Notes: generated from the letters alone by a model not told the origin. A DNA stretch of 64,000 bases from Chloroflexota bacterium (GCA_043804635.1 JAZDIU010000056.1:6376-70375), one strand, 5' to 3'; counted from the stretch's first letter, positions 51,338 to 56,580 are shown. Translations and numbers: made by a program.

Positions 51338-52537
51338 CTACCGGAGCAACGGTGGTAACTTTTCTTCTCTAGTCTCCGGATACCGAATAGTCAGAGATTC
51401 GGCTGGCTTCTGTAGGGTGCAGCGAGAATAGATGTCGAGTAACCTCTTAGTAGATACTTGAGAACTCTGCGAACGTGCCCATTCACGGGCGGCTATGCCT
51501 ATTCTTTGCCTCTCGTTATTGTTTTGGAGGAGCTTATTGCAGGCTTGAGCGAATTCATTTTCATCTTCGCCAACCAGAATTCCAGTCTCTCCAGAAGTAA
51601 TGATGTCCAGTGGTCCCATCATACCAACGGCAACTACTGCCACTCCAGCCATCATAGCCTCCACTAGAACAAGTCCCTGAGTTTCTGTCTTGGAAGCAAA
51701 CACAAAGAGAGAAGCTTGTTTATACAGGTCGACTAAGTCACGCCGCTGTAAAAAGCCAATGAAAGTAACAAATTGGGCAATGCCGAGGCTTAAGGCATAC
51801 TTCTCCAGAAACTCACGCTGAGGCCCATCCCCGGCGATAATTAATCTAGCACCAGGTCTGAGGGAAAGAAGTTGTTGAAAAGCGCGCAAAAGAAAATCGA
51901 GGTTTTTCTCTTTCCCGAATCTTCCTACGTAAAGCAGCAGGTCTTTAGAAGGAATGTTCAATGCTGTTCTGACGTTCCACTTGATTTCGTGGGAGAATTC
52001 TTCCTCGTCAACTCCGAAGGGAAGCGCGTGGACAGGCTGAGTTATTCCGTAGCTTTCCAGTTCGCGCTTCATCTGACTTGAAGGGGCAATAATTGCATTG
52101 CAACGATTACAGAATAACCGGCTCAATGATTTGACTATCCCACGAGTGGGGCGAATTACCCTCGGGAGGTACCGGCGATAATCCATATAGAGGGTATGAT
52201 AGGTATGAATGTGCGGTATGTGATATCTTCCAGATGCCCACAGCCCTAAAAGTCCGATGGTGCCAGGGTCGTGAGAATGGATGATATCCATGGTGGAAAT
52301 AAGCCGAAGAGTACTCGGGTTGTAAGGGATAGCTACTCTCATCCCCCTGTAGAAGATAAACTTTAGAGACGGGAAGCCATAGACTTCTGTGCAGGAGTCG
52401 TCTCGATCCGGATGGCTTGGACAGAAAATATGGACCTCGTGGCCTTCTCTCTTTAGCTCACGTGCCATCGTCTTCAGAACGGTGACAACCCCGTTTACCT
52501 CGGGAACATAAGTGTCCGTAAAGAGTCCGATTTTCAT
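51338..52537 (-). CDS. GT4-family (group 1) glycosyltransferase
   Basis: 399 aa with an N-terminal GT4 Rossmann fold and the C-terminal E-x7-E region (ETQGLVLVEAMMAG). Confidence 0.85.
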   Translation of the reverse strand: MKIGLFTDTYVPEVNGVVTVLKTMARELKREGHEVHIFCPSHPDRDDSCTEVYGFPSLKFIFYRGMRVAIPYNPSTLRLISTMDIIHSHDPGTIGLLGLWASGRYHIPHIHTYHTLYMDYRRYLPRVIRPTRGIVKSLSRLFCNRCNAIIAPSSQMKRELESYGITQPVHALPFGVDEEEFSHEIKWNVRTALNIPSKDLLLYVGRFGKEKNLDFLLRAFQQLLSLRPGARLIIAGDGPQREFLEKYALSLGIAQFVTFIGFLQRRDLVDLYKQASLFVFASKTETQGLVLVEAMMAGVAVVAVGMMGPLDIITSGETGILVGEDENEFAQACNKLLQNNNERQRIGIAAREWARSQSSQVSTKRLLDIYSRCTLQKPAESLTIRYPETREEKLPPLLR

Positions 52538-52704
52538 CTTCGTACTAAGTTGCCAATAAATGGATTATATTGTTGCCGATATTACTTCTTTTAGGGACTT
52601 TTCGCAAATATTCAGAGATATTTTTCCGTGTTCGCTCTTTTACTATTGATATACAATTCCAGATAATGCCTTAATTTTCGGCTTCGGCTTGGGTGGCGTA
52701 ATCT

Positions 52705-52857
52705 TCAGAGTACCCTATTTTCTATTTGCCGGATGCGCTCCCCGGTTACATTAAACTCGTTACCTACTTCCTTAATGTTCCCCCGGACCCGTCCATCATC
52801 AAGACCGAACCTTAATTTGATTATTCGATGCTCACGTAAGTCTATTTCTAATTCCAT
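52705..52857 (-). CDS. 50-aa stand-alone sigma-70 region 4 (HTH) mini-protein or sigma-factor gene fragment
   Basis: Below the ORF-track cut-off. ATG at 52857 overlaps the end of the upstream gene by 10 nt. It encodes [50 protein letters not shown], which aligns with RpoD-type region 4.2 ([30 protein letters not shown]). Confidence 0.5.
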
Positions 52858-53588
52858 TGAATTACCTTGCTTGACCAGGCTTCCTGAATCCCCTCCACAA
52901 GCCTGGATTGTTTGGGTTCTCTAATGTTAAGTAACCGAGCTAACGTGATTTTGTCAAAATCATGGAGAAAATGACATTGCTTTCGAAAATCCAATATCGT
53001 TTCCCGAGTACCTCCATAAAGGACATAATCCAATTGCCTGGCATAAGGTTCTAGCTGCTCCCTGGCATGCTGGCAAACCCTGGTAAAAAAGGTTTCCACC
53101 TGCTTTTCTCGATGTCGCTCAAATCTGTGTGACGAAGAGCCCCCCTGACGGTGGCGAGAGTGTACCAAGCCAGTGCCAACCTTGCTGGAAAGCAATTTCT
53201 CACCTTGAACGACGCCAATACCATACTCCCCAAGTCTCACAACTATCAATCCAAAAAGAAGTCCACGATGCATAAGAGAAAGAAGAGGCTCAATATCACA
53301 AGTATTGGAAACACTTTCTTTCATCACAGGGAATGGTGGCATCACTAGGTACTTATGATGCGGCCCCCAAAAAAGTATGCCCCCGGTCTGAGATTGTGCA
53401 AGTGAAATGGATAGGTCTTCAGGTGTTTTCTTCACATTCAGTATCGTTTCCATCATGCTTTGGATATTTGTTTGTGAAAACCCTGGTGGAACACATAGAG
53501 AACCGACCTCTATAGAGTCGGCTTTTAATTCCTCCAGCAAATGCAGTAACCTTACCTTAGTAAGATTGTACCGTCTAACAGTTGACAT
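52848..53588 (-). CDS. eRF1 M-domain / Vms1-like (VLRF1- or baeRF1-type) release-factor-fold protein with GGS in place of GGQ
   Basis: 246 aa. [60 protein letters not shown] aligns, from my memory of eRF1, with [55 protein letters not shown]. Confidence 0.6.
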
Positions 53589-53681
53589 TCTTCCTCGGTG
53601 CTATTTCTCCGTAAGAGTGGATAAGTCCGCCTCTCATCCAATGGACGTTGTTTTTCCTCAGGCTTGGGTATGGTTCCCACG

Positions 53682-54788
53682 CTAACTCCTTAAAACCTCT
53701 GCGAATATTGGATTTGAAGTAAGTACTCTCGATGGCATCAATCGGTAATTTGAGCCGTTGTAAATGATTGACCCAGATTGAGACATCGAGTTCAGCCTGT
53801 CAATCAAATCTACAACATTTTCATATCCGAACCTTCTGGTAAGTTCATCGATGTTCAGCCCTTCAGAAAGAAGACGTAGACGTAGCATCGCCTCCTCGGC
53901 AGCTTTGTCTTGCATACTCAATACTTCCACGAATTCCGTTAAGACAGTCGGGTCCTTTAAATAAGCTTGTAAATCAGGCCGGTTGTTGAATCGCTTACCT
54001 TTAAGATGTGAGGCTGCAGCCGGACCCAAACCAAGATATTCTCCACCTCGCCAGTAGTTGAGATTGTGTAAACATTCTTGACCCGGGAGGGAGAAATTTG
54101 ATATCTCGTAATGGATAAACCCACGCTTTACAAGGAACCACCTCGCCTTGTCGAATATTTCGACCTGCTCATCGTCGGATGGCAGGTCAACCGGAGGATT
54201 GGTTGATAAGGGGGTATCAGGTTCGACCGAAAGGCAATACAATGAGAGGTGCTTGATACCCAATTCGGTCAAAGTCTCTAAACTGGTACGGAGTCTTTCC
54301 CATCTCTGCCCGGGAAGTCCGATGATTAGGTCAGCGGAGATAGCTCTAAAGCCTAAATCGTTCGCCCGTTTTATGGTGCCGATTGCCTGTGCGGACCGGT
54401 GAACTCTGCCCACACTTTCGAGTTCATAATCTGAAAGCGACTGAACACCTACCGATACACGGTCTATCCCCATCTCTCTAGCGGCCTCGAGCAACTCGAG
54501 TGTAGCTGATTCCGGGTTAATTTCGATTGTGGCCTCGGTGAGTTCAGATAGGTCGAGACTCTGGCGTAGACTGTAAATTAGTTTTCTTAGGTTTTTGGCT
54601 CCGAGTAGGCTTGGTGTTCCACCTCCTAGGTATAGAGTCTGAAATGAAGCTCCAACATACCCTTGGCATTCACTAAGGACGGCTTCGATGTAACTCTCGA
54701 TAAGTTCGCTCCCACCCGCCAGGGAATAGAAATCGCAATAGCTGCATTTTTTGACGCAGAAGGGGATATGGATATAAAGCCCTCTAAT
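53682..54788 (-). CDS. hemW: radical SAM heme chaperone HemW (HemN-like); apparent non-canonical ATT start
   Basis: The track ORF starts at an internal TTG (54494), but the frame is open to 54800 and encodes (I)RGLYIHIPFCVKKCSYCDFY...LYLGGGTPS, the radical-SAM CxxxCxxC N-terminus. There is no ATG/GTG/TTG between the upstream in-frame TGA and that motif. ATT at 54788-54786 lies 4 nt after GGAGGAG. Confidence 0.85.
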   Translation of the reverse strand: MRGLYIHIPFCVKKCSYCDFYSLAGGSELIESYIEAVLSECQGYVGASFQTLYLGGGTPSLLGAKNLRKLIYSLRQSLDLSELTEATIEINPESATLELLEAAREMGIDRVSVGVQSLSDYELESVGRVHRSAQAIGTIKRANDLGFRAISADLIIGLPGQRWERLRTSLETLTELGIKHLSLYCLSVEPDTPLSTNPPVDLPSDDEQVEIFDKARWFLVKRGFIHYEISNFSLPGQECLHNLNYWRGGEYLGLGPAAASHLKGKRFNNRPDLQAYLKDPTVLTEFVEVLSMQDKAAEEAMLRLRLLSEGLNIDELTRRFGYENVVDLIDRLNSMSQSGSIIYNGSNYRLMPSRVLTSNPIFAEVLRS

Positions 54789-54789
54789 T

Positions 54790-56580
54790 TTACTCCTCCA
54801 TCCTCAGCAATGATAGAAAGGCTTCCTGCGGTACCTCAACCGCACCCACCATTTTCATCCGTTTCTTGCCTTCTTTCTGCTTCTCAAGGAGTTTTCTTTT
54901 ACGGGTCACGTCACCGCCATAGCACTTCGCGAGGACGTCCTTTCTTGCCGGGACGATATCTTCGCGGGCGATTATCTTACCACCGATGGCACCTTGTATC
55001 GGTATCTCGAATTGTTGTCTCGGGATAAGCTTCCTCAGTTTATGCACCAAGGCTCTAGATCTCGTAATGGCGTTATCACGGGTGGTGATGAAAGAAAGAG
55101 CATCGACCTGGCCGCCCTTTACCAGGATATCCACCTTAACCAGATCGCCGGGCTGGTAACCGACAAAGTCGTATTCCAGGCTGGCATACCCCTGGCTCAC
55201 GCTCTTTAGCTTGTCATAGTAATTAATAATCATTTCAGACAATGGGAAATCATAGGTGAGGATAGTTTTTTTACTATCAGGATGTGCCATATTTTTGAAT
55301 GTACCGCGTTTTTTCTCCGAGAGTTCCATACACGGTCCAATGTATTTACTAGGTGTAATTATCCGCGCCTGGACAATCGGTTCCTCAATGTGGTCGATAC
55401 GGTCCGGAGGTGGAAACCGGGAAGGGTTATCAATCATTAAAGCTTCTCCATCACGAGTAACTACTTTGTAGACGACTGAGGGCATAGTGGCAATCAAGTC
55501 CTGCCCGTATTCCCGCTTCAATCGTTCCATAGTAATTTCCATGTGCAACATACCCAAAAAGCCGAGCCGGTAACCATAGCCCAACGCCGCTGAAGTCTCC
55601 TTCTCGAAGACAAGCGACGAATCGTTAAGCTGGAACTTTTCCAGTGCCATGGTAAGCTTGGGATAATCGTTAGTATTGATAGGGTAGATTCCGCAGAACA
55701 CCATCGATTGAGCGCGCCTGAATCCGGGTATGGCTGGTGTTTCGGGATGACTAGCAGAGACTATGGTGTCCCCAACATGGATATCACCTACGTCCCGGAT
55801 AACTGCTCCCAGATAGCCAACGTCACCCGCTTTTAGAGTTGGGCAAGGGCTCAGTTGCGGACTAAAATAACCGACTTCATCCACCTCGAAAATTTTGCCG
55901 GTGGACTTTATCATAATTTTGTCACCGGCGGTAACACTGCCTGAAAAAACACGGATATGTGGGAGAACACCCCGATAGGTGTCAAAATAAGAGTCGAAGA
56001 TAAAGCAACTGAGAGGCCCGTCACTATTACCTTCAGGCGGCGGAACCCGGGTTATTATCGCCTCCAGCAGTTCGGGCACGCCGGTTCCCAATTTGGCTGA
56101 GACCAGAAGCGTATCCGCCGCCGGCAGGCTCAGCATTTCTTCCAGTTGCAGGCGGGCTTCGTCTATCATGGCATTAGGCAGGTCTATCTTATTGATGACC
56201 GGAATAATTTCAAGCCCGGCGTCAACAGCGAGGTATGCATTAGCGATAGTCTGGGCTTCGACTCCTTGAGAAGCATCAACGAGTAATACCGCGCCTTCAC
56301 AAGCTTTGAGACTCCTTGAGACCTCATAGTTAAAATCCACATGTCCCGGGGTATCGATGAGATTCAGAATATACTCGTCACCCGTCTTTGACCGATAAGG
56401 CATTCTGACCGCCTTGGCCTTGATGGTAATACCGCGCTCGCGTTCCAGTTCCATGCTGTCGAGGAATTGCTCGCTGGTGCTGGTATGGATAATCCCGGTC
56501 AGCTCGAGTATGCGGTCGGCTAGGGTCGATTTGCCGTGGTCGATATGGGCGATAATACAGAAATTTCTGATATTAGTCAT
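54790..56580 (-). CDS. lepA: elongation factor 4 (LepA)
   Basis: 596 aa: [20 protein letters not shown] ... LepA C-terminal domain. Confidence 0.97.
   Translation of the reverse strand: MTNIRNFCIIAHIDHGKSTLADRILELTGIIHTSTSEQFLDSMELERERGITIKAKAVRMPYRSKTGDEYILNLIDTPGHVDFNYEVSRSLKACEGAVLLVDASQGVEAQTIANAYLAVDAGLEIIPVINKIDLPNAMIDEARLQLEEMLSLPAADTLLVSAKLGTGVPELLEAIITRVPPPEGNSDGPLSCFIFDSYFDTYRGVLPHIRVFSGSVTAGDKIMIKSTGKIFEVDEVGYFSPQLSPCPTLKAGDVGYLGAVIRDVGDIHVGDTIVSASHPETPAIPGFRRAQSMVFCGIYPINTNDYPKLTMALEKFQLNDSSLVFEKETSAALGYGYRLGFLGMLHMEITMERLKREYGQDLIATMPSVVYKVVTRDGEALMIDNPSRFPPPDRIDHIEEPIVQARIITPSKYIGPCMELSEKKRGTFKNMAHPDSKKTILTYDFPLSEMIINYYDKLKSVSQGYASLEYDFVGYQPGDLVKVDILVKGGQVDALSFITTRDNAITRSRALVHKLRKLIPRQQFEIPIQGAIGGKIIAREDIVPARKDVLAKCYGGDVTRKRKLLEKQKEGKKRMKMVGAVEVPQEAFLSLLRMEE

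Follow-up and report, generated by a model that had tools for sequence, protein, structure and literature searches.

The window, by which we mean the whole stretch of 64,000 nucleotides analysed here, carries on its minus strand a gene for a 246-aa protein related to release factors, and the stop codon of this gene is overlapped by the start of a 50-codon ORF whose product resembles region 4 of sigma-70 factors. The arrangement raises the question of whether the two ORFs constitute a module or whether a fragment of a sigma factor gene has come to lie next to an unrelated gene, a choice that the sequence-only reading had left undecided. The evidence comprises the family membership and fold of the larger protein, a loop motif common to its whole clade, the signs of decay in the small ORF, the absence of this ORF from relatives and a breakpoint in DNA homology. 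It points to two unrelated neighbours, an intact acVLRF1 gene and a non-functional sigma remnant, which form no module; we assign to this explanation a probability of roughly 0.88.

The window originates from a metagenome-assembled genome of the Chloroflexota, and the order of genes on the minus strand is lepA, a hemW-like gene, the 246-aa ORF, the 50-aa ORF and a GT4 glycosyltransferase gene (Table 1). The coordinates of both ORFs, their overlap and the peptides quoted in the sequence-only reading proved to be exact: the ATG of the 50-aa ORF (52857-52855) is located 5 nt upstream of the TAG of the 246-aa ORF (52850-52848), and the overlap amounts to 10 nt. The sequence AAGG is found 9 nt upstream of this ATG. 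A scan of positions 52400-53800 yielded no more promoters and terminators than shuffled sequence would, and it placed no terminator between the ORFs.

Table 1. Coordinates of the features of the acVLRF1 locus, counted from the first nucleotide of the window.
Feature	Position	Strand	Remarks
lepA	54790-56580	minus	
hemW-like radical SAM gene	53682-54788	minus	Pfam Radical_SAM and HemN_C; upstream context, directly after lepA
acVLRF1-family gene, 246 aa	52848-53588	minus	Pfam PF18859
Loop H146-R-Q148-G149-G150-S151-S152-S153	53130-53153	minus	Corresponds to the GGQ / GGxSQ catalytic loop
50-aa ORF	52705-52857	minus	Product matches Sigma70_r4
Codons 1-7 of the 50-aa ORF, MELEIDL	52837-52857	minus	Native 3' end of acVLRF1 with the adjoining 3' flank; no sigma origin
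Sigma-70 remnant, about 60 codons	52657-52836	minus	End of region 4.1, region 4.2 and C-terminal tail; read-through translation 70% identical to primary sigma tails
One-codon insertion, Gly26	52780-52782	minus	Compared with RAR-TLEEVG in sigma tails; within the helix-turn-helix
GGG (Gly39) in place of the Arg of VTRERIRQ	52741-52743	minus	Arg in 119/119 compared tails
In-frame TGA, end of the 50-aa ORF	52705-52707	minus	Position is Arg in 99% of compared sigma tails
AT-rich spacer, remnant to glycosyltransferase gene	52541-52656	minus	No counterpart in relatives aligned at the DNA level
GT4 glycosyltransferase gene	51338-52537	minus	Pfam Glycos_transf_1, E=5e-42; downstream context gene

The upstream hemW-like gene, which carries the LYIHIPFCVKKCSYCDF motif in frame, is itself unusual in its beginning. 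Its frame opens after a TGA at 54806-54804, and the first approximately 95 codons (54494-54806, minus strand) contain no ATG, GTG or TTG. The gene probably starts with the ATT at 54788-54786, 1 nt past the stop codon of lepA (TAA, 54792-54790) and 6 nt past a GGAGG sequence; a standard ORF or gene caller would shorten the product to 270 aa.

The product of the 246-aa ORF matched the Pfam family acVLRF1 (PF18859) with an E-value of 3.8e-23 and a score of 82.6 bits (cut-off 27.1) over profile positions 3-129 of 130, and matched baeRF_family10 (5.6e-11) and eRF1_2 (9.5e-11) more weakly, which bears out its initial assignment as an eRF1/Vms1-like protein. In NCBIfam it scored 99.1 bits against acVLRF1_NCBI (NF041024), under the curated cut-off of 125, and 72 bits against aRF1_eRF1, and an identical protein from a Chloroflexota MAG is named 'Vms1/Ankzf1 family peptidyl-tRNA hydrolase' at NCBI. 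A total of 978 homologues were found at E<=0.001, the closest being 85% identical, and the named source organisms are nearly all Chloroflexota/Dehalococcoidia. Homology to the release-factor M domain extends over about 130-150 residues, not over the 70 or so initially proposed, and a profile built from 29 homologues matched the archaeal aRF1 4af1 with an E-value of 3e-13. The AlphaFold2 model of the protein (pLDDT 82.8) retrieved aRF1/eRF1 structures on top of the Foldseek list (E=2e-12), with Balon and Vms1 lower down, and superimposed on aRF1/eRF1 M domains, e.g. on that of 8hku with an rmsd of 2.6 over 129 columns. The N-terminal part of the model comprises approximately 95 residues of alpha/beta structure; one profile alignment, a weak match to aRF1 3agk, begins at residue 5. 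The Balon proteins of both Mycobacterium and Psychrobacter were matched by the model, an indication that bacterial aeRF1 proteins of the Balon and Vms1 types are hard to separate by fold.

The 246-aa protein is a member of the acVLRF1 family with the aRF1/eRF1 fold, and its gene is intact, stand-alone and typical of a Dehalococcoidia/Chloroflexota subclade of a known and annotated family. The family acVLRF-1 was defined by Burroughs and Aravind in 2019 as a stand-alone actinobacterial/chloroflexi family without a stop-codon domain and with a GGxSQ motif (PMC6514570). No experimental paper on acVLRF1 was found in the literature searched. The sequence-only reading regarded the bacterial homologues of this fold as experimentally uncharacterised, which no longer applies to the wider aeRF1 superfamily, to which the characterised Balon belongs (PMC10901736). 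A search with PADLOC gave no defence-system match for acVLRF1.

The most distinctive feature of the protein is its Gly-Gly loop. When the clade profile is aligned on the aRF1 segment RKGGQSAQRFARLR, GG falls on GG and Ser151 occupies the glutamine position of GGQ, and in the loop GGSSSH of the window protein no Gln follows the GG, exactly as had been noticed from the sequence. The segment RHRQGGSS is invariant across 29 aligned homologues and represents the most conserved part of the alignment; in the helix after the loop, R155, R158 and R160 of the segment RFERHREKQ are likewise invariant. Among the close homologues, 118 have a recognisable loop; all of these carry S or A at the Gln position of the family motif GGxSQ, and in 117 a Gln directly precedes the GG. 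In the AlphaFold2 model the loop has a low pLDDT and is flexible. Judged from these alignments, the missing Gln is a trait of the whole Dehalococcoidia clade, not a local mutation.

A survey of the loop was extended beyond the clade by searching its profile against 1.84 billion representatives clustered at 50% identity, where 142 of the best 150 matches had a recognisable loop. GGxSQ was kept in 94 of these and missing in 48, which suggests that about one third of the acVLRF1 family lacks the Gln of this motif. The loop [not Q]GGxSQ occurred in 90 of the 142 representatives, QGGxS[SA] in 25, a loop with both glutamines in 4 and one with neither in 23. The published description of the family mentions GGxSQ alone; 25 of the 48 representatives lacking its Gln carry a Gln before GG instead. 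In a rough neighbour-joining tree the Gln preceding GG is mostly confined to one clade, around the window protein, while loss of the GGxSQ Gln recurs, the parsimony changes numbering 10 and 24, respectively. Strict covariation of the two positions was considered and set aside: the 2x2 table is strongly skewed, but no firm claim can be made because the sequences are phylogenetically non-independent. That Gln may have been relocated from after to before the GG is a reasonable hypothesis on these data. It is a tentative suggestion that the Dehalococcoidia subclade of acVLRF1 represents a release-factor-like enzyme whose Gln is permuted to before Gly-Gly (QGGSS[SA]), or which is Gln-free. If so, the peptidyl-transferase centre would allow chemistry of the GGQ type with Gln in another place, and bacteria would possess a functional rescue factor of the Vms1 type whose motif is non-canonical.

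By analogy with eRF1 and Vms1, the acVLRF1 protein of the window is probably a catalytic Vms1-like release factor. On a stalled ribosome, or on a large subunit that is obstructed, its Gly-Gly loop would enter the peptidyl-transferase centre and free the nascent chain from the P-site tRNA, a reaction that would require neither recognition of a stop codon nor a dedicated partner gene. Such a role is favoured because the Gly-Gly loop and the Arg residues following it are the most conserved parts of the protein and because an EF-Tu-binding C-terminal domain is absent; catalytic activity is not assured, because the score lies under the NCBIfam cut-off and the Gln of GGxSQ is missing.

Alternatively, the protein could bind ribosomes without catalysis, as a hibernation or occlusion factor similar to Balon rather than a peptidyl-tRNA hydrolase, which we consider unlikely, though worth weighing. 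The Ser at the glutamine position of GGQ, the absence of Gln from approximately one third of the family representatives and the Foldseek match to Balon (E about 1e-7) all speak for it. Balon is a GGQ-less aeRF1 homologue that hibernates ribosomes (PMC10901736), and Burroughs and Aravind predicted non-catalytic roles for Gln-less aeRF1 homologues (PMC6514570). However, these authors describe the Gln-less baeRF1 families as poorly conserved around the loop (PMC6514570), whereas the Gly-Gly, the preceding Gln and the downstream Arg residues are invariant here. The EF-Tu-binding C-terminal domain of Balon is also absent from the window protein, which has 246 residues compared with the 360-375 of Balon chains. 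In bacterial release factors, substitutions of the Gln of GGQ keep substantial hydrolysis while substitutions of Gly do not, and this tolerance also argues against a purely binding function.

The product of the 50-aa ORF matched Pfam Sigma70_r4 with an E-value of 5e-9 and 35.9 bits (cut-off 24.1), the match beginning at residue 8, and it also matched RpoD models near their C-terminus, so that its resemblance to sigma region 4, with TGERIRQ for TRERIRQ, was correctly perceived from the sequence. The ORF is not unannotated, as had been believed, and appears at NCBI as a 'sigma factor-like helix-turn-helix DNA-binding protein'. The homology to sigma factors does not end with the ORF and runs past its TGA to the natural C-terminus of sigma; reading through the TGA raises the Sigma70_r4 score from 35.9 to 44.3 bits and brings the match to the end of the profile, a genuine tail scoring 62.6 bits. 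Sigma regions 1.2, 2 and 3 were not detected in the window by tblastn with the N-terminal parts of two full-length sigma factors, consistent with the earlier statement that regions 1-3 do not accompany the ORF.

The remnant was compared with the 119 best sigma tails from 5.8 billion clustered proteins. Of the 40 positions conserved in at least 95% of the tails, 7 are changed in the remnant, while 98 of the 119 tails themselves have no change at such positions and the maximum is 3. Among the changes are TLEE to NIKE and the replacement by Gly39 of the Arg of VTRERIRQ, which corresponds to R584 of region 4.2 in E. coli sigma-70, a residue in contact with the -35 element; the remnant has in addition gained a residue in the helix-turn-helix. 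Even the best match to the remnant in this set shares only about 70-72% identity, with mixed phyla among the matches, and its lineage of origin is unassignable because it is too diverged. The product of the ORF is a singleton, present on one contig and found once among approximately 15 billion proteins. The reading frame of the remnant is kept over about 60 codons, with one 3-nt insertion and no frameshift, which chance can account for but which does not positively prove neutrality. On the whole, the sequence comparisons clearly favour the 50-aa ORF as the decayed 3'-end of a primary-type sigma gene, i.e. a pseudogene fragment, which is presumably unexpressed or of no use.

The origin of the start codon could be traced in the closest relatives (L084-L088), whose acVLRF1 is 86-88% identical to that of the window. 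They read CAATGGAATTAGAAATAGGCTAA, with the same ATG followed by MELEIG and a stop codon, a 6-codon ORF; CAATGGAATTAGAAATAG is common to the window and these relatives. The ATG arises from the conserved Gln-Trp codons in the ...IQWN tail of acVLRF1, read out of frame. The translational coupling read into the overlap of the two ORFs is hence accidental, the ATG being a by-product of the acVLRF1 tail. DNA homology to the relatives stops at 52833-52836, 12-15 nt after the acVLRF1 stop codon and exactly where the Pfam sigma match begins.

The small ORF is also absent from the wider family. Around acVLRF1 genes of 42-88% identity, comprising 80 loci in species genomes, 80 on metagenome contigs and 3 on other contigs, tblastn with the read-through peptide found no sigma-like sequence at E<=1 (about 163-166 loci), and DNA homology to the spacer in these loci was confined to the 12-15 nt that directly follow the stop codon. 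Absence of the ORF from close relatives, which have the 6-codon ORF in its place, is an outcome that the sequence-only reading had itself named as refuting its proposal. On the other side, homology of the GT4 orthologue loci to the window begins at about 52540-52544, and no sigma gene was found beside the GT4 orthologues, which follow CoA_transf_3 or ketoacyl synthase genes. About 293 nt (52541-52833), comprising the remnant and the spacer, have no counterpart in relatives on either side and are unique to this genome, because the homologies from the acVLRF1 side and from the GT4 side both end outside them. An ancestral adjacency of sigma and GT4 genes, into which acVLRF1 was inserted, was ruled out by the CoA-transferase and ketoacyl-synthase neighbours of the GT4 orthologues and by the start of their homology at 52540-52544.

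None of lepA, hemW and GT4 was found as a neighbour of acVLRF1 in the relatives. Where acVLRF1 is 80-88% identical to that of the window, the gene has a different neighbourhood in each contig examined (L081-L090, compared with window positions 52833-53637), and DNA homology is limited to the gene and roughly 10-50 nt on each side. The cause is either rapid rearrangement of the genomes of these Dehalococcoidia or movement of acVLRF1 between sites. Differing neighbours are as expected for a stand-alone gene and agree with the published description of the family (PMC6514570).

The remnant and its breakpoint might instead reflect an error of assembly, a chimeric join or sequencing errors at about 52833, the remnant then being the terminal part of a complete sigma gene at another site. 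The sequence is MAG-derived, the breakpoint is sharp and the flanking genes have other neighbours in relatives, as such an error would produce. However, a chimeric join does not explain the nonsense codon, the 3-nt insertion and the seven changed near-invariant residues, and the genes on both sides, acVLRF1 and GT4, are intact, with their closest homologues in Dehalococcoidales/Chloroflexota. An assembly artefact is accordingly improbable.

A slight residual chance also attaches to the 50-aa ORF having become a lineage-specific micro-protein, the nearest relatives compared being 86-88% identical. Small proteins that consist of sigma region 4 are by themselves common in databases, and a stand-alone sigma-4 family was considered as a parallel: many proteins of 55-108 aa contain Sigma70_r4 as their sole domain, and the two that were checked (2/2) are split tails of full-length sigma genes. 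Both directly follow ORFs bearing regions 1-3 and lie on long contigs. Proteins of 65-75 aa of this kind are the last pieces of primary sigma genes broken into two to four ORFs (loci L164:1701-3228, L165:2105-3198 and L166:2095-3198); one such tail (P0131) is listed on 57 contigs, through frameshift or stop errors that recur in assemblies, or as genuinely split genes. These split tails therefore offer no precedent for a sigma-4 mimic. A defence context of the 50-aa ORF was rejected, the PADLOC match to MzaA reflecting generic sigma region 4 only.

The least tenable proposal, a two-gene module in which a 50-aa sigma region 4 mimic coupled to acVLRF1 would bind the beta-flap, -35 DNA or an anti-sigma factor, can appeal to an open ORF that overlaps the upstream stop codon, to the Pfam threshold that it passes, to its NCBI annotation and to the preceding AAGG, but has next to no likelihood given a singleton product missing from every related locus searched, homology that continues through the stop, a truncated recognition helix, the loss to Gly of an Arg invariant in all 119 tails, an extra residue in the helix-turn-helix, an ATG and first seven codons that are an accident of the acVLRF1 tail, and two sigma-4-only proteins that on checking proved to be split sigma tails. 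Of the two possibilities entertained by the sequence-only reading, that of a remnant agrees with the read-through homology, the lost residues and the indel, and that of a module is contradicted by the related loci.

Under the preferred explanation of two unrelated neighbours, a rearrangement would have left the last approximately 60 codons of a primary-type sigma gene just 3' of acVLRF1. The out-of-frame ATG within the ...IQWN codons would happen to match the frame of the remnant and, together with the nonsense TGA inside it, would delimit an accidental ORF of 50 codons. With a module, a sigma-4 mimic would have connected ribosome rescue with transcription; this link is absent. The locus also carries a warning for annotation, in that a gene remnant whose score exceeds a Pfam threshold, and which has been given a protein annotation, can resemble a small regulatory gene. 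The remaining interest, which is modest, lies in the QGGSS[SA] loop variant of the widespread acVLRF1 rescue-factor family: a clade, together with about one third of the family, that lacks the Gln characteristic of release-factor catalysis but keeps an invariant Gly-Gly loop is a good test case for the role of Gln.

In comparison with known systems, the remnant corresponds to the last part of region 4.1, the helix-turn-helix of region 4.2 and the C-terminal tail of RpoD/SigA, with approximately 70% identity, but regions 1-3, an uninterrupted tail and the Arg of VTRERIRQ, all present in RpoD/SigA, are missing from it. The 246-aa protein resembles several release-factor homologues to different degrees. 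Like Balon, it is bacterial, belongs to the same superfamily, lacks the glutamine of GGQ and gives a structural match (PMC10901736). Unlike Balon, which has three domains, binds EF-Tu and contains a lasso loop, it keeps a strict Gly-Gly loop and has no C-terminal domain.

Among the canonical factors, aRF1/eRF1 provide the best sequence and structure matches, with GG on GG. The GGQ of these factors is GGS in the window protein, which lacks the C-terminal domain for the translational GTPase and is considerably shorter (246 aa compared with about 410-437 aa). Its family assignment places the window protein in one VLRF-1 clade with Vms1/ANKZF1, and its model is similar to the structure of Vms1 bound to the 60S subunit (6r84), with an E-value of 2.5e-5. 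The two presumably share a mode of action on an obstructed large subunit without reading of a stop codon. The Rei1 zinc finger, ankyrin repeats, VIM and link to Cdc48 of Vms1/ANKZF1 are all absent from the 246-aa protein, genes for RQC partners were not found near its gene in the window, and its loop lacks the GxuQ glutamine of Vms1.

With acVLRF-1 (PF18859) itself, the protein has in common the RNase-H-fold release-factor M domain, the Gly-Gly loop and the Arg-rich helix that follows, as well as a length of approximately 250 aa, a stand-alone gene, a Chloroflexota host and perhaps a short N-terminal region. The family motif is GGxSQ, while the window protein and the clade that surrounds it have QGGSS[SA], with an invariant Gln before GG.
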